NCBI GenBank assembly: GCA_965215885.1
Contig: CBDCEW010000105.1
Location: forward strand, 192,001-256,000
Reading direction: 5' to 3'
DNA length: 64,000 bases
From: Candidatus Moanibacter sp.
Lineage (GTDB): Bacteria > Verrucomicrobiota > Verrucomicrobiia > Opitutales > UBA2987
A program made the position numbers. Numbering within the stretch: position 1 is the first letter of the stretch; each line of letters opens with the position of its first letter. Below are positions 9,001-24,000 of the stretch, piece after piece.

Positions 9001-12000
9001 TCCGAAGACAGCCCTAAACCGTCGAGAAACTCGAAAGAATCATCTCGTACGCCCTCAAGAAGCCCCAGATCTGAAGCAAACTGATAGTTTCTTCCCGTTG
9101 TCGTGCTCTTCTGCATCTTAGGAACGAACCGAATTATAGATTCGCGTACCAATAATCCGATGTCATAATTCGAGACTTCCGGAACATCAGAGAAAATTCC
9201 GAAAGTGGGTTAATATCATGTTGAGAAATCCGAAATTGAATTCTAGGCTACAGTTTTTTCAGAATTCATCATGCAATATCACCAATTCCATCTAAAGAAA
9301 AGTAAACGGGAATTAATAATTACGATTAACGAATCAAAATTCGACGCTTCCGCGGTAGGCGAGTTTAGGAACCGTCTGTCCGAGGCTTGGGAGGAGGTGA
9401 TATCGGGGGTGACAATCGATTTTTCCAAGGTCGATTTTATCGACTCCTCAGGGATCGGAGCGCTCTTGAGCGTTCAGAAGCGGCTCAAGCAGAGAGACGA
9501 ACCCGTTACCATATTGAACGCCAAGCCACCCGTCATTAGCGTAATAGAACTGCTCCGCCTGCATCGAGTATTTACTCTGCGTTCTCAATAACCGTTATTC
9601 CGGGGGGCAAATCGTATTTCCACTCCTGAAGGGAGAAAGCCCACCGTTCCCTGATCGCTTCGATCTGCGGCTTTCCAATCGTGTAGACATTCTTTCTATA
9701 CGCGCGTTCCGATTCCACGTAAGCGCTGATCTGAGAGAGCCCACCCATCTTCTTCTCCAGGCGGAAGTGGTCATAGATTTCTTCGACCGCATCCATCGGA
9801 TTTCTTTCTAACGACTCGTATTTCAATTCGAAAAAACAATCCGTCGACAGTGAATTGCGATCTCTCAGAAACCTCCGCATGATTAATTCGTAATTCTCAA
9901 GCGTGATTTCTTCAAAATCCAAGTCCTTCCAGTTCTGCCACGCAAAGGCCGGCATTGTCCTTCCAAAGTGTCTAACCGTCGAACAAAATACCTCGAAAGG
10001 GTTGCGAACAATGTGGATGAATTTCGCTTTAGGGAATACTGATCTCAACCAGGGAATGCGCGCTGTCGCGGCGGGATTCTTCAAGAGCAGGCGCTTTCCC
10101 CTGTTTTCTTCACTGTAGGCCAGCTTCTTCAGAAGGTAGTTGTAGGTGTAGGCGAATTCTTCCAATTCCTCCTTTCCAACCCCTTCCAACAATATCGATC
10201 GCCTGTATATCTCCCGAAAGTGGCGAGGGAAGTAATAACAGTAGTAATAGCACAGCAGACCCATATTCCCGAGGGCCATTTCTTCTTCTTGTGGAGAATC
10301 GAGTGAGAGCCGCACATTGTCCATTCCTCGAGTTTCAGGCAGAATTTTCTCGATTATTGGCGGAGCGATTTTGAGCTTTCCGAGAAAATCCCAGGGCATA
10401 GCTGTCTGCAGAAACGAAATCCAGGCGAACTGTGGATCCTGGCTGAGGAGATTATGTAGATAAGTCGTGCCGCTTCGCCAATGTCCAACGATAAAAATCG
10501 GATCCTTCTCAATCTCGGTCTCCTCGATGCCACGATCGTGCATGAGCCGTTCCCACCGATAGAAGGGAAAACGCAGAATCACGGCCATTACCGCCGCCAG
10601 TCGGACCCAACGCGACTCTCCTTGAAAGGGACCATACCGGCGCTTCGTTTGAAGCAACGTGAGCAGATTGCTCCCCCCTAACGGGTGCAGTAGCGGTCTC
10701 TTAAATTCCTCTGGAGTAGATCGCGAGGACCTCACTACACAGTACTCGCATGTGCAGCATCGGAAGACTCGGCTTCTTTGAATCGAGCGACCGTCTCAGG
10801 CGAAATAAAATAGTTTTCACACTGGGGTCTCGCCGCCTCGAATTCGAGCGATTGTAACAATCGGTAATGAGCTAATGAATCTCTTACCTTGACAGGTCCC
10901 AAGGTGGGCCTGATACCGGAACTCTTACCGGTTAACAAACTGGAGAGTATGCATCCGGTAATCTCTCTCGAGTCTCGCCCTGCCAGCGTCAGAAGATGAT
11001 CGCCTCCCAATTCCTCTAAAAGGCTGGCAGTACCATTGGGTAGAAAGATCGTCTCGCTGATCTCTTCGTTTAACCGCAACAAACCTCCCGTCGTGAATAA
11101 TATATCATGTTGCGTTTCAAGGCGCTTAATGGCGTCGAAAACCCGAAAACAGGGCGGAAAGGAATCATCCACGATGAGAGAACCGGGTTGCAGTCGGTTC
11201 ACATCCAGTATTCCCGGTACATTCGTAGCGCCGAGAATGAAAGTAGCTTCATAAACCGCGTCCGGGAGCTTCCCTCGGCTCGTCTCGAGGCGCACGTCGC
11301 CCCGGAAATTCACTTCCTCAGCTAGCTTTCGGCGAATCTCATCTAGTGCCTCAGCCTTTTGATATAGATCACACAGTATCAACTCACGCGGATGCGGCAA
11401 AACCTCCAACATCAACCGAAGGGACGCATAACCAATCGATCCCAAGCCTACGATCGCGACACTTTCCTTCGAGAAATCCCGTTCCGTCTGGCTCAATAGT
11501 CCCTCTATCGACTTTATTATCGTGGCCGTTGTAGTGGCATGGCCTGTCGTGATCTCCGGCATATCGTCACGCTTGTCGATCCACTCAACTATCTTCCTGC
11601 CGTAATCCGTGGCAGATGGAATCAGGCCCGTCAGTGAGACTTGTGCGGCGCCCATCTTTGCCGCCACTTCCATCGCTCCTACAACATGCTCAACCAGGGC
11701 ATCCTGATCTTTGTAGAGTTCCGCCCCCAGCCGCGGCAGCATTATCAAGCCTATGCGTCCGAACGAAGTCTCGTAGAGATTTGACAAAAACGGCTGACCG
11801 CGGAGCCAATTGTGAACGATATCCTCCTTAGACAGGCCGGTCAGCGCTAAAAAGGCATCCGGAATATAGGCCAGTGCAACCGCATCCGCTCGGGGCAGAT
11901 CTTCCTGGTTGCCACTAACATTATCGATTATCTCCACCGTGAGGTAACTCGAGTCGAGCTCCTCATTCACAAAACCGTTGGCAGCTTGTCCGCTTTCCAA

Positions 12001-21000: not shown

Positions 21001-24000
21001 TTGCGCAACATAAGTGCGATTTATGTTTGAATCGACCTTTCCTCGGGACATCTCCTCAAGCAGTGACCAACCGCCCAAAGCGTAGATCAGCTTATCGATC
21101 TGTTTGATGGCCTTGCGAAATACCGGTTCCGTTCTCAGGAGTTCCTGTCCCATTCCCCACCATTGGGGTCCCTGTCCGCTGAATACAAAAACAGATTTTG
21201 GTTCCTTGGCAGCGGCGCGATCGGACACCAAACCCGGCACCCGATTCTCTTCTCTTTCCCAGGCTTGCAGTTTGTCGGCCAGTTCCTTGGAAGTGACCCC
21301 AACGACTGCCAGCCGATGCTCATGGTGACTCTTACGCAGGGCCGCCGTGGAAGCTAAGTCGGGAAGGGAAACCCTACCATTCTGGGAGCCATTCTCGAGC
21401 ATATCGCGGAAGGCACCGACATAAACTTTCAGCGATTCCTCGGTATTGGCGGAGACCGGTAGCAGCACTGGCCCCTCCCATGAGCGTTTTTTTCGCTTGG
21501 GCTCAATCTTCTTCTTCTGCGGAGGCGCTTCTTCCAATACAATATGGGCATTTGTTCCACCGAAACCGAAGGAATTTACCGCCACCACAGCGGATTCTCC
21601 ATCGCACGGCAACGGCTCCGCCTCAGTGGGAACCCTTAATCGAAGCTCATCGAATTGTATGTTTGGGTTCGGTGTCTCGAAGTTCAGATTCGGTGGAATT
21701 GTCCGGTGCTTCAGGACAAGCGCCGCTTTTATCAAACCCGCCACCCCCGATCCGGATTCAAGATGGCCGATATTCGTCTTGACGGAACCGATGACACACT
21801 CCTCTCCCTTCCCTCGACCCCTGCAGAGGATGTTTCCGAGAGCCTGCAATTCGATCGGATCGCCTACCGGAGTGCCCGTTCCATGAGCTTCCATATAGCT
21901 TACCCTTTTCGGTGTTATGCCCGCCTGTCGGTATGCTTCTTCCAACATATCCGATTGCGATTTCACTCCCGGAACGGTCATTGCGTTCGTGCGGCCATCC
22001 TGGTTTACCACAGCTGCCCGAATAAGCGCATAGATGGGTAACCCTTCCTCCTGCGCCTTCCTAAGCGGCCTGATAACTAAAATCCCAGCGCCTTCTCCAC
22101 GTACGTAGCCATTGGCGCGAGCGTCGAAGGCATAACATTGCCCGTCCGGCGATAGCATGGAGGCCTTGCTGAACCCGATCGATGAATCTGGCGTCAAGAG
22201 GGCGTTGACTCCTCCCGCCAGCGCTGACTCACATTGACCATCCCATATGCTTTGACACGCCAGATTTATCGCTACCAAAGCCGATGAACAAGCCGTGTCG
22301 ACCGATAAGCTCGGGCCCTTAAAATTGTAGAGATAGGAGATTCGGTTGGAGGCGATGCTCAGTGTGCTCCCGCTATTCGTGTGCACATCCACTTCGGCAG
22401 GCCCCTTCATCTGAATATTGGCGTAGTCGTTACTGGCTATTCCAACGAATACACCTGTATTCGTCCCTGACATCCGATCCGGTGCCAGCCCACCATCTTC
22501 CAACGCCTCCCAAGTCACCTCCAGCAACCATCGCTGCTGGGGATCCATGCGCAGTGCTTCCCTCGGGGAAATCCCGAAAAATCGGGCATCAAATTTATCG
22601 ATTTCGTCGACAAATCCGCCCCAGCGCGTTATCATCTTGCCCGGTATCTGGGGATTCGGGTCGTAGTATCGATCGACATTCCAGCGGCCCTCCGGAACTT
22701 CCGTTATGCCACTTCTACCCTCAATCAGTAATTTCCAGAATGACTCCGGATCATATACTCCTCCCGGAAACCGACAGCCTATTCCAACTATTGCGAGAGT
22801 TTCCCTCCTCTTTCCACTCATCGGACACTCCTCCCGTTAAACTGGGCACTGGCCTCACTCGTTCGAAAAGCGCAAAGAGAAGATCTTTTCATTCTCAAAC
22901 TTACCAGTTCTCCCACTAAAGAATTCACTTAATGGATAAGGTAGCCTTCATTGTCTAGACAAAAGATGGCGATGGAAAACAGGCTTAAAGAAGAATTATA
23001 GGTTTTCTCAAGTCCTTCTCCAATGGGTAGTAATCGGTCAGCACGCAAGGGTACCAAAAAGGAACCTCCCGGAGGGTGACAGCCAAAATTATCTTCCAAA
23101 AGCTTTGAGAATTTCTTCGAGGGAATCTCACATCGCACTCCCGGCTTCGCCCACCGACAACATCCCGGGCATGCCCCTCGTCTATTCAATATTAAGCCGA
23201 AGAATAAATTTGCTAACCCCTTTGTCAATCAATTCATTCCGGTCTCTCACGAACGCCGCGGAAGTACCACGAGACCCACTCTGTCGCCGATCTTTAGTAC
23301 TCGAATTCGCAATTGACCGCCCGCCAATAATGCCAATACGAAGTAAATCACGTAATTCCGCTTCTAGTCTTCCAACCGGTCCTTTGCCCTACTGCCTGCC
23401 AATGGGAGACTGCCGTCAGCAAGGTCATTTGCTAATATGAAATTAACAGAAATCGCCATCAAGGAAAACAGGCTTACTTACGCTCTGATTCTGTTTGTCG
23501 TAATCGGCGGCCTTATCGCATTCTTCAACCTTCCCCGTTTCGAAGATCCAAAGATTCCCTTTCGCTACGCCTTCATTACTACACTGTATCCGGGTGCTTC
23601 GGTGGAAAGGATGGAGACCCTCGTCACGGAGAGAATCGAAGAGATCCTGAGCGAAATCCCCGAGATCGAATTCATAAACGGCGAATCACGAAAAAACGCT
23701 TCCGGTATTGTCGTGAAGATTCAGGACCGTTACACGCAAGTAAAACCTGTCTGGGATCGCATTCGCCGAAAACTCGATCGTCTCAAGAACACGCTGCCCG
23801 AAGGAGTGCAGGGCCCATTCTTCAATGATGAATATGGAGAGGTATTCGGCACGATGATTGCCGTCACCGGAAAAGATCTGACCTTCCCTGAGATCAGGCG
23901 AGTTACCCTGGCGCTTCGTAAGAAGCTTCTTCGGCTTGAGGAAGTCTCCAAAGTCATCACCCTGGGAGATCAAGAAGAGCAAATCGTCGTCCAGTACGAC

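Follow-up and report, generated by a model that had tools for sequence, protein, structure and literature searches.

A stretch of 64,000 nucleotides from Candidatus Moanibacter sp. (contig CBDCEW010000105.1, positions 192,001 to 256,000; hereafter the window) encodes a PKS-NRPS of 4,028 aa and raises the question of what such an enzyme builds in a bacterium of the Opitutales and how its product is released. The survey's finding had taken the protein for a fungal-type iterative synthase, new or nearly unique in bacteria, that releases its product via a new off-loading domain. Based on our analysis, we consider it rather probable that it is a self-contained megasynthase of bacterial type, in which one reducing cis-AT PKS module and a C-A-T module are followed by a terminal amidation domain (TAD), and that the product is released as a glycinamide, sulfated and exported.

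The synthase ORF runs from ATG to TAG (Table 1), and its domains follow the order KS-AT-DH-cMT-ER-KR-ACP-C-A-T (Pfam, E 1e-10 to 7e-99), i.e. a single-module reducing PKS is fused to one NRPS module, just as had been described, with a tail of 434 aa at the C-terminus. All catalytic motifs are intact, their conservation being counted over an alignment of 72 rows. The KS triad (Cys178, His313 and His353) is in place and invariant in 72/72 rows, as are the AT Ser, His934 and Asp1098 of the DH, the Tyr at position 2319 of the KR, which also contains an LDD motif, and the carrier serines Ser2482 (ACP) and Ser3557 (T domain). Phe at the third AT motif position and the SAM motif EVGAGTG of the cMT are each found in 71/72 rows, and both GGVG, part of the intact NADPH motif GSGGVG of the ER, and HHxxxD of the C domain in 71-72 of the 72. 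From motif rules applied to GHSVGE and YAFH we take the AT to be malonyl-specific. The GC content is level throughout the window.

Table 1. Features of the synthase locus (window positions; aa, residues of the synthase unless a protein length is given)
Feature	Position	Strand	Basis
PKS-NRPS-TAD synthase, 4,028 aa	10735..22821	-	ATG-to-TAG ORF, 4,028 codons + TAG stop
Ketosynthase (KS), aa 8-382	21676..22800	-	Pfam E 1e-97 and 7e-40
Acyltransferase (AT), aa 544-853	20263..21192	-	Pfam E 1e-76; motifs GHSVGE, YAFH
Dehydratase (DH), aa 905-1180	19282..20109	-	Pfam PKS_DH_N, PS-DH
C-methyltransferase (cMT), aa 1396-1567	18121..18636	-	Pfam Methyltransf_12 E 6e-16
Enoylreductase (ER), aa 1854-2148	16378..17262	-	Pfam ADH_N, ADH_zinc_N
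Ketoreductase (KR), aa 2171-2348	15778..16311	-	Pfam KR E 1.5e-60
ACP, aa 2450-2522	15256..15474	-	Pfam PP-binding, ACP_SdgA_C
Condensation domain (C), aa 2551-3008	13798..15171	-	Pfam E 6.5e-99; motif HHIVSDA
Adenylation domain (A), aa 3030-3500	12322..13734	-	Pfam, TIGR01733
Peptidyl carrier (T), aa 3530-3593	12043..12234	-	Pfam PP-binding
Terminal amidation domain (TAD), aa 3595-4028	10738..12039	-	PDB 9E4S E 9.4e-90; model
PAPS-type sulfotransferase, 387 aa	9572..10735	-	Sulfotransfer_3 E 8e-33
Divergent intergenic region synthase/RND, 615 bp	22822..23436	.	presumed promoters
RND permease, candidate exporter, 1,005 aa	23437..26454	+	ACR_tran E 5e-133; RND_permease_2

The synthase family is conserved in a marine verrucomicrobial lineage (Opitutales) and is not unique. 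Searching with the tail region yielded 197 proteins at E<=1e-20, and sizes and domains were counted for 120 of them; among these 120 matches, 71 comprise 3,900-4,150 aa, of which 70 align end to end and have the same domains. Thus, where one other protein with this domain set had been reported, there are at least 70 co-linear homologues, and the supposed novelty of the architecture in bacteria has to be given up. In an order sample of 400 genomes the synthase occurs in 15, confined to four families (its own and three others), it is present in 8/8 same-family genomes, and all nine complete relatives contain full-length co-linear orthologues with 52-67% identity. The genome of the window encodes a single KS of PKS type and a single C domain, together with an APS kinase and two PPTases, and the synthase is also the sole PKS/NRPS of three small relatives, G002 (1 contig, 98% complete), G004 and G032, suggesting that it must prime itself. 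The RNA libraries of three studies contain contigs that span the sulfotransferase gene and the entire synthase at 95-100% identity, which alone is no proof of transcription.

Even with the threshold relaxed to E<=10 the tail has no match in Pfam, in line with what was noted before, and its suspected kinship to acyl-ACP reductases (AAR) was borne out (NCBIfam AAR, E 3.5e-4; Foldseek, E 4.5e-16); a further NCBIfam match is the PigE N-terminal domain (E 1.2e-14). Its counterpart is, however, CarI from carmabin biosynthesis (PDB 9E4S, Table 1), and in a Foldseek search an AF2 model of the domain (pLDDT 83.3) reached TM 0.85-0.92 with the CarI TAD vs 0.56-0.71, at about 17% identity, with AAR. Rankin et al. 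2024 described the TAD as a fold resembling AAR; it is represented by PDB entries 9E4S, 9E4U, 9E4X, 9E50 and 9E56, and a preprint already points out a Verrucomicrobiota cluster. Thus, the tail is a TAD of the CarI type, i.e. it belongs to a known family of unsolved function, and the idea of a new off-loading domain falls. Its motifs are TTG (3758-3760), GLGSIG (3792-3797), Asp3818, DDSFP (3885-3889) and Cys3957; conservation of TTG, GxGxxG, the Asp that selects NAD and the catalytic Cys ranges from 68 to 72 of the 72 rows. Also kept is the acidic residue beside the nicotinamide, which, as the TAD authors suggest, favours NAD+. In 71/72 rows Phe replaces the Gly of the CarI DDSG-cisPro loop, and the larger sister clade has Tyr in place of CarI Asp2170, so that the chemistry may differ from that of CarI.

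The code of the A domain, with positions placed by hand from the alignment and without a GrsA alignment, is DILQFGLIWK, and 70/72 rows conform to DILQ[F/L]GL[V/I]WK. According to PMC12283262 a Gly code is DILQLGMIWK, with Gly-typical residues at 299/322/330/331; position 299 is Phe in the synthase but Leu or Met in published Gly codes. The code thus suggests a glycine-like A domain.

As there is no loading module or partner synthase, we propose that the KS would be primed from primary metabolism, either with acetyl/malonyl units or with a fatty acyl thioester. The PKS module might then work like mycocerosic acid synthase (MAS) for one or more rounds, probably several, converting malonyl-CoA and SAM into a saturated, α-methyl-branched acyl chain, which the C domain would couple to glycine, the residue suggested by the A-domain code. 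The acyl-Gly thioester would move to Cys3957 of the TAD and would most likely be released as a primary amide, i.e. an N-acyl-glycinamide, like carmabin, vatiamide and hectoramide. Finally, the translationally coupled sulfotransferase may add sulfate, either to the new amide nitrogen or to a chain hydroxyl, and the divergently encoded RND pump may export the resulting anionic lipid. Taken together, the synthase probably builds a methyl-branched fatty acyl-glycine that leaves via the TAD, and the product is likely a methyl-branched N-acyl-glycinamide, afterwards sulfated and exported, with iteration, amide release and the site of sulfation being the steps that we infer.

The sulfotransferase gene indeed abuts the synthase, its GTG start overlapping the TAG stop by 1 nt (TAGTG), and its product contains RSGTT, a 5'-PSB-like motif that aligns to the mycobacterial entry 2ZQ5. 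An orthologue lies directly downstream of the synthase in 10/10 genome loci and 4/4 close metagenome loci (14/14), supporting the functional link proposed in the survey's finding. In most of the sister clade a GDSL-type gene stands in place of the sulfotransferase, so that sulfation does not belong to the synthase as such. The RND orthologue occupies the same divergent position in 7/10 of the relatives' loci, and no membrane-fusion gene was seen beside the RND gene. For a 111-aa ORF at 23105-23440 no family was found.

How the PKS module works, and where it comes from, can be read in more than one way. The co-linearity with fungal PKS-NRPSs holds for the architecture, since PsoA (PDB 9X2C) matches KS-AT, KR-ACP and C-A-T in order, and in the literature searched the exact domain strings came only from papers on fungi; on this reading the synthase would be a fungal-type iterative enzyme, by shared descent or transfer, almost unique in bacteria and with an unknown off-loading domain. 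The label "fungal-type" does not survive the scores, as CurL, MAS, CurJ, CurK and LgrA are much better matches and LovB and PsoA remain 35-65% below the bacterial enzymes in every region. For KS-AT, CurL (756 bits), PikAI (694), DEBS (649) and MAS (643) precede LovB (497), PsoA (474) and animal FAS (about 400); for the reducing region MAS (467), CurK (ER, 286) and CurJ (cMT, 258) compare with LovB (204) and PsoA (159), and for C-A-T bacterial NRPSs (498-812) with PsoA (314). The best NCBIfam match is Pks2, all scores lying under the NCBIfam cut-offs (1354 vs 2400). Judged from these scores the parts of the synthase are bacterial and not fungal-derived, and with the published TAD, the numerous homologues of the same build and the even GC content also opposing it, a fungal-type origin is highly improbable. 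In another reading the module adds a single unit to a fatty acyl-CoA or acyl-ACP that already exists, yielding a 2-methyl fatty acyl-glycine derivative, with nothing programmed or fungal-like about it. Its KS-AT is nearest to that of CurL, a non-iterative modular enzyme, its reducing domains are all intact, which would also fit an ordinary fully reducing module, and the cyanobacterial olefin synthase is a known case of fatty acids being elongated by one module. Yet genes for starter delivery, such as an acyl-AMP ligase or a loading ACP, are missing from the conserved three-gene unit, and the reducing region most resembles the iterative MAS, neither point being decisive. We regard a single extension as a possibility to be taken seriously, even if we do not expect it; the iterative use that we favour is deduced, and both the starter and the number of rounds are presumed.

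The mode of release is likewise debatable. Cys3957 might take over the acyl-Gly thioester and, with NADH, yield an N-acyl-aminoacetaldehyde or possibly an N-acyl-ethanolamine, whose alcohol the sulfotransferase would O-sulfate. TAD and AAR have the fold and the catalytic Cys in common, and the tail also has the NCBIfam matches named above. Two relatives with this fold have a characterised function, AAR and the TR domain of TamH, and both reduce thioesters to aldehydes; the TR domain, an AAR homologue, is described as using NADH on an ACP-bound acyl chain (PMC9594044). Moreover, the coupled sulfotransferase would find a natural acceptor in a primary alcohol, whereas a fully reduced N-acyl-glycinamide lacks an ordinary hydroxyl. 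According to the TAD paper the amidation is unproven in vitro and never reconstituted, with no release upon addition of NAD(H), ammonia or any amino acid. Nevertheless, that paper associates the TAD with terminal amides, primary amides are what each of the three pathways known to use a TAD yields, the tail is far nearer to the CarI TAD than to AAR, and both the NAD(H)-selecting Asp and the acidic residue by the nicotinamide are kept. Thus, reductive release to an aldehyde is now a minority reading that we hold to be unlikely.

The points that the present analysis adds are the glycine-like code, the status as sole PKS/NRPS, the linkage to the sulfotransferase, with the GDSL-type gene of the sister clade, and the coverage by RNA libraries. 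CarI (carmabin), VatR (vatiamide) and HcaD (hectoramide) also contain C-A-T followed by an AAR-like NAD-binding domain of ~400 aa, and their TADs have TTG, GxGxxG, the Asp and the invariant Cys in common with that of the synthase. However, they terminate multi-module cyanobacterial lines and not a one-protein PKS-NRPS, their last residue is N-methylated Tyr or Val instead of the predicted Gly, and their loop reads DDSGP instead of DDSFP. The TAD paper found no gene that consistently co-occurs with the domain, whereas a sulfotransferase is coupled to the synthase. AAR (PDB 6JZU) and the TamH/PigE domains share the two-lobed fold and the position of the catalytic Cys, and likewise take the acyl chain from a phosphopantetheine carrier, but AAR, a more distant relative than the CarI TAD, is free-standing, uses NADPH and makes aldehydes.

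Fungal PsoA and LovB (7CPX) resemble the synthase in having KS-AT-DH-cMT-ER-KR-ACP-C-A-T in one protein of ~4,000 aa without a loading module. The ER of fungal PKS-NRPSs is usually inactive, whereas the ER motif of the synthase is intact, and they end in an SDR-type R or Dieckmann domain instead of a TAD. The top-scoring cyanobacterial cis-AT modules, CurL (KS-AT), CurJ (cMT) and CurK and JamJ (ER), also have the cMT embedded between DH and ER/KR, but are single steps of multi-protein lines with upstream modules, while the synthase is alone in its genome. Polycyclic tetramate macrolactam synthases are bacterial too, with a single-module PKS fused to one NRPS module, and work iteratively, as is proposed for the synthase, but they are not known to contain cMT or ER, load ornithine and end in a TE. 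Mycobacterial MAS, the best PDB match of the reducing region, and Pks2 are of the iterative type KS-AT-DH-ER-KR-ACP and make methyl-branched acyl chains; they obtain the methyl group from methylmalonyl-CoA, whereas the synthase would use its cMT and SAM with a malonyl-type AT, and they are not fused to an NRPS module and a TAD. As in the sulfolipid-1 system (MmpL8, Stf0), an RND transporter and a Stf-like sulfotransferase are encoded nearby, a likeness that we regard as an analogy of logic and not as membership.

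The window's 4,028-aa synthase ends in a domain that, judged by sequence and predicted fold, is a member of the published family of terminal amidation domains (TADs). This C-terminal region follows directly on the T domain and runs to the stop codon; a Pfam search of the protein's final 434 residues found no family, even with the cut-off relaxed to E<=10. In a phmmer search of the PDB the tail matches the TAD of CarI from the carmabin pathway over both lobes (E 9.4e-90, 304.6 bits; query 47-427, chain 39-416), the entries being 9E4S, 9E4U, 9E4X, 9E50 and 9E56, titled 'TAD from Carmabin Biosynthetic Pathway' in Foldseek. 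An AlphaFold (AF2) model based on a 10-sequence alignment (pLDDT 83.3, pTM 0.84) predicts a two-lobed fold like that of acyl-ACP reductase (AAR), with a macrodomain-like N-lobe and a Rossmann C-lobe, and Foldseek superimposes it on these five entries with TM values of 0.81-0.92 vs. 0.56-0.71 for AAR. The survey's finding had described the tail as AAR-like, a lead that the latter values and a weak NCBIfam match to AAR (3.5e-4, next to 1.2e-14 for the PigE N-terminal domain) bear out; it had also taken the tail for a new off-loading domain, which the matches to CarI contradict.

According to the accessible text of Rankin et al. (bioRxiv 10.1101/2024.10.28.620694), a TAD of ~400 aa ends the last NRPS module in the carmabin, vatiamide and hectoramide pathways, the products of which are all primary amides, and 757 homologues are spread over many phyla, one cluster being 'mostly comprised of Verrucomicrobiota' and having Tyr in place of CarI Asp2170. 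Our database search with the tail region, limited to proteins of 2,215-7,049 aa, yielded 197 matches at E<=1e-20; among the 120 of them listed, 71 are 3,900-4,150 aa long, and these were aligned with the window protein, giving 72 rows. Cys3957, the counterpart of the catalytic Cys2238 of CarI, is kept in all rows, as is the NAD(H)-selecting Asp3818, while TTG (3758-3760), aligned to the CarI motif, is found in 71-72 rows (its first Thr in 71) and GLGSIG (GxGxxG) in 68-72. The loop by the nicotinamide, Asp-Asp-Ser-Gly-cisPro in CarI, reads DDSFP in the window, with Phe replacing Gly in 71/72 rows. Its second Asp, at the position of CarI Asp2170, is Asp in 16 rows, including the window (Asp clade), and Tyr in the remaining 56 (the sister Tyr clade).

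Features of the window discussed in the text; domain positions are residues of the synthase (Pfam)
Feature	Position	Strand	Remarks
Frame matching the FGE-sulfatase profile	2526-3008	minus	160 aa; positions 91-170 only of 255; probably a gene fragment
Sulfotransfer_3 protein	9572-10735	minus	387 aa; E 8e-33 (Pfam)
PKS-NRPS-TAD synthase	10735-22821	minus	single open frame, 4,028 codons
KS	aa 8-382
AT	aa 544-853
DH	aa 905-1180
C-methyltransferase (cMT)	aa 1396-1567
ER	aa 1854-2148
KR	aa 2171-2348
ACP	aa 2450-2522
C	aa 2551-3008
A	aa 3030-3500
T	aa 3530-3593
RND permease gene	23437-26454	opposite to synthase	upstream of synthase; ACR_tran E 5e-133
MASE1 frame running on into PAS-HisKA-HATPase-receiver kinase	27873-29885	minus	MASE1 profile 196-298
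MASE1 frame	29753-30355	minus	MASE1 profile 6-166
RHS/YD-repeat protein	33512-38594	plus	1,361 aa, then short RHS fragment
FG-GAP/ASPIC-UnbV proteins	39705-44249	minus	two, adjoining
DDE transposase frame	45119-46789	minus	one frame

The synthase gene is real, intact and conserved. The domain order, the Pfam-less tail and the adjoining sulfotransferase (ST) gene first noticed in the survey are all confirmed by the Pfam domains, the uninterrupted frame and the TAGTG sequence, in which the TAG stop of the synthase and the GTG start of ST have one base in common. No further PKS or NRPS genes were found within the 64-kb window. Farther along, the two overlapping MASE1 frames cover complementary halves of the profile, as if a frameshift had broken up a single sensor kinase gene.

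Sampled words of the window are present in metatranscriptome assemblies from three studies, one run being labelled 'sponge metagenome', and RNA-library contigs of 95-100% identity span ST and the entire synthase, presence in an RNA library alone being no proof of transcription. These contigs give no cover at 8500-9116 and almost none at 23925-26392, including the RND gene; as an uncovered stretch proves nothing, these gaps were taken neither as a sign of an operon boundary nor as an argument against DNA carry-over. At 26393-27000 the cover is deep in two runs (word depth 56 and 14), and at the joint 26485/26774 the contigs have 38 other letters for the 288 nt of the window (26486-26773), which could point either to a small highly expressed RNA or to an insertion specific to the window's strain; an Rfam scan of 22000-28500 matched no family. 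For squid-associated Verrucomicrobia, a 2026 preprint notes that hybrid T1PKS-NRPS clusters are expressed; its accessible part gives neither architecture nor product, and we draw no link from it to the window.

The synthase is not unique. Where one other protein with the same domain set had been reckoned with, at least 70 others have the full build: among the matches listed, 70 of the 71 aligned proteins show it. The KS Cys/His/His, the AT Ser, the DH His/Asp, the KR Tyr and both carrier serines are present in 72/72 rows, HHxxxD of the C domain in 71-72 and the SAM motif of the cMT domain in 71; the ER nucleotide motif GGVG is likewise kept. Members of the Tyr group are 51-58% identical to the window protein over the full length, and those that are named are labelled Verrucomicrobiales or Verrucomicrobiota. 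The exception among the 71 is P0110, a 3,920-aa PKS-NRPS-TAD protein from a Myxococcota MAG (locus L009) without cMT and with a nitroreductase-family domain, A code DMFNFGVMWK and a TAD 44% identical to that of the window, i.e. an independent combination of PKS-NRPS and TAD in another phylum. Two further contexts were observed: proteins of about 2,480-2,560 aa lead from KS-AT-DH-ER-KR-ACP straight into a TAD that shares 43-47% identity with that of the window, and lack an NRPS module (P0079, P0080, P0082, P0085, P0088, P0091-P0094, P0098, P0101, P0107, P0112), and NRPSs of about 3,030-3,100 aa have an SDR-type thioester reductase (PF07993) plus a TAD-like region (P0066, P0081, P0090, P0095, P0096, P0100). 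The latter might bear on the question of whether TADs act on aldehydes.

The genome from which the window derives (6.36 Mb, 105 contigs, 90.3% complete, 5.5% contamination) belongs to a family in which TAD was found in 8/8 genomes. In an order-wide sample TAD occurs in 15 of 400 other genomes, restricted to four families (8/8, 1/1, 2/2 and four genomes of the fourth), and none was found in the tallied families that are represented by 33-34 genomes each. A phylum-wide sample gave TAD at E<=1e-20 in 0/400 other genomes despite seven full-length proteins named Verrucomicrobiales/Verrucomicrobiota among the matches listed, which means that the family is rare or else that those lineages escaped the sample. 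In all nine complete loci an orthologue with 52-67% identity aligns to the full length of the window protein, whose counterpart in a tenth locus is cut by a contig end. Scanning genome contigs with a single TAD sequence as query returned only 3 loci, and scanning metagenomes with the TAD alignment returned 42.

ST scores 115 bits against a gathering cut-off of 27 for Sulfotransfer_3, its RSGTT (5'-phosphosulfate-binding loop) aligns to RTGTT of 2ZQ5, and it is predicted to be a PAPS-dependent sulfotransferase; an Atlas search returned generic sulfotransferase clusters only. A curacin-type decarboxylative ST-TE logic was dropped, as the matches to the CurM and OLS ST domains (E 0.19 and 0.13) are not significant. 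The partner genes differ by clade. In 10/10 genome loci the gene immediately after the synthase is an ST orthologue (51-64% identity), and in 7/10 there is a divergent RND orthologue (54-61%); ST also directly follows the synthase in 4/4 metagenome loci of the Asp clade. In the Tyr clade ST takes this place in two loci only, once as a 179-aa fragment, whereas in 16 loci (L024, L026-L029, L031-L036, L038, L042, L046, L049, L060) a gene for a protein of 730-750 aa directly follows the synthase, and in two more it lies a few kb off. These proteins are mutually homologous (46-74% identity), and 5/5 tested match GDSL-like lipase (PF13472); no homologue was found in the window. A divergent pseudouridine synthase gene usually comes after the GDSL/SGNH-like gene.

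The A-domain code reads DILQFGLIWK, its ten positions having been placed by hand from conserved core motifs, and DILQ[F/L]GL[V/I]WK is found in 70/72 aligned rows. The classical glycine code is DILQLGLIWK, an exact string absent from our literature text search. The accessible part of a 2025 survey (PMC12283262) gives DILQLGMIWK for glycine, and according to it Gly domains typically have Leu/Met299, Leu/Met322, Ile/Val330 and Trp331. The terminal residue of the product is thus predicted to be glycine. The top C-A-T score of LgrA was dropped as glycine evidence, as its 812 bits are the sum of two equally matching A domains (283 and 284 bits). The AT domain contains GHSVGE and YAFH, the Phe of which we take to indicate malonyl-CoA, so that the cMT domain would supply the methyl branches.

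In the window's genome a single KS is of PKS type, the other four being the size of FabF/B, and there is a single C domain and a single TAD; the same set recurs in three related genomes, G002 (98% complete, with 2.6 Mb in one contig), G004 and G032; two others, G006 and G039, have additional synthases. As acyl-AMP ligase, loading ACP and thioesterase were not found in the conserved unit, the KS would have to be primed from primary metabolism, and this priming together with the stand-alone status speaks for a PKS module that is used repeatedly, though not conclusively. The window's genome encodes APS kinase and two phosphopantetheinyl transferases.

We propose that the synthase, after self-priming, would build its chain in a MAS-like manner from malonyl-CoA and SAM and condense the acyl chain with glycine; the acyl-Gly would then be transferred to Cys3957 of the TAD and, by analogy to the three known TAD pathways, would probably be released as a primary amide, which would finally be sulfated and exported by the RND permease. 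The weakest links are the chemistry of the TAD, the number of PKS rounds and the sulfate acceptor. As to the chemistry, the two functionally characterised relatives of the TAD fold, AAR and the TR domain of TamH, are reductases (for TamH, the accessible part of PMC9594044). As to the acceptor, an ordinary hydroxyl is lacking in a fully reduced acyl-glycinamide; saxitoxins offer a known case of N-sulfonation at a carbamoyl NH2. Release by reduction, giving an N-acyl-aminoaldehyde or N-acyl-ethanolamine that is then O-sulfated, would account for ST more simply. Against reductive release, which we consider unlikely, stands the far closer relationship of the tail to CarI. With amide release, a module that is iterative and programmed like those of the fungal highly reducing PKS-NRPSs, yet independently assembled from bacterial parts, would yield a multi-methyl-branched acyl-glycinamide, sulfonated by ST at the new amide or a retained hydroxyl, that might be an anionic sulfolipid or surfactant typical of this lineage of marine, host-associated Verrucomicrobia; as a complete account this is speculative and decidedly improbable.

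If this iterative sulfolipid reading were true, nature would offer no simpler system than the one-gene pathway for solving the function of TADs, an off-loading domain that is known but whose chemistry is open: the accessible text of the structural study reports no in vitro release of substrate under any condition tried, CarI included (bioRxiv 10.1101/2024.10.28.620694). As the pathway is minimal, a single protein making a plain acyl chain that is predicted to end in glycine, is conserved family-wide and is found in RNA libraries, it is a tractable test bed for amide vs. aldehyde release. That the synthase is the sole thiotemplate enzyme in several small genomes suggests a conserved lipid and not a sporadic antibiotic, and the clade-specific partners, ST or the GDSL-type protein, offer handles for finding the product. 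What is new is the recognition of a one-protein, predicted glycine-ending and putatively TAD-releasing pathway as conserved trait of a Verrucomicrobial lineage, together with its clade-specific partner genes and its value as a minimal system for the TAD reaction. Our literature search found no publication describing the cluster, bioRxiv supplements, among them that of the TAD preprint (Figures S2-S9, S15, cluster members), which may already show the architecture, lying outside that search.

The supposed kinship to fungal enzymes does not hold against solved structures. The KS-AT region scores 756 bits with CurL, 694 with PikAI, 649 with DEBS and 643 with MAS, vs. 497 with LovB, 474 with PsoA and about 400 with animal FAS; the DH-to-ACP region scores 467 with MAS, 286 with the CurK ER and 258 with the CurJ cMT, vs. 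204 with LovB and 159 with PsoA; and C-A-T scores 498-812 with bacterial NRPSs vs. 314 with PsoA. By these comparisons the synthase is a bacterial hybrid PKS-NRPS, not a fungal-derived one, and, as far as the scores show, its fungal look reflects common layout, not common descent. It stays below the NCBIfam equivalog cut-off for the MAS-like iterative PKSs Pks2/MAS (NF041183, 1354 vs. 2400 bits). With the fungal highly reducing PKS-NRPSs it shares the order KS-AT-DH-cMT-ER-KR-ACP-C-A-T in one protein, but whereas those end in an SDR-type reductase or a Dieckmann cyclase, the synthase ends in a TAD. It may be regarded as a counterpart of the fungal layout that was assembled independently in bacteria.
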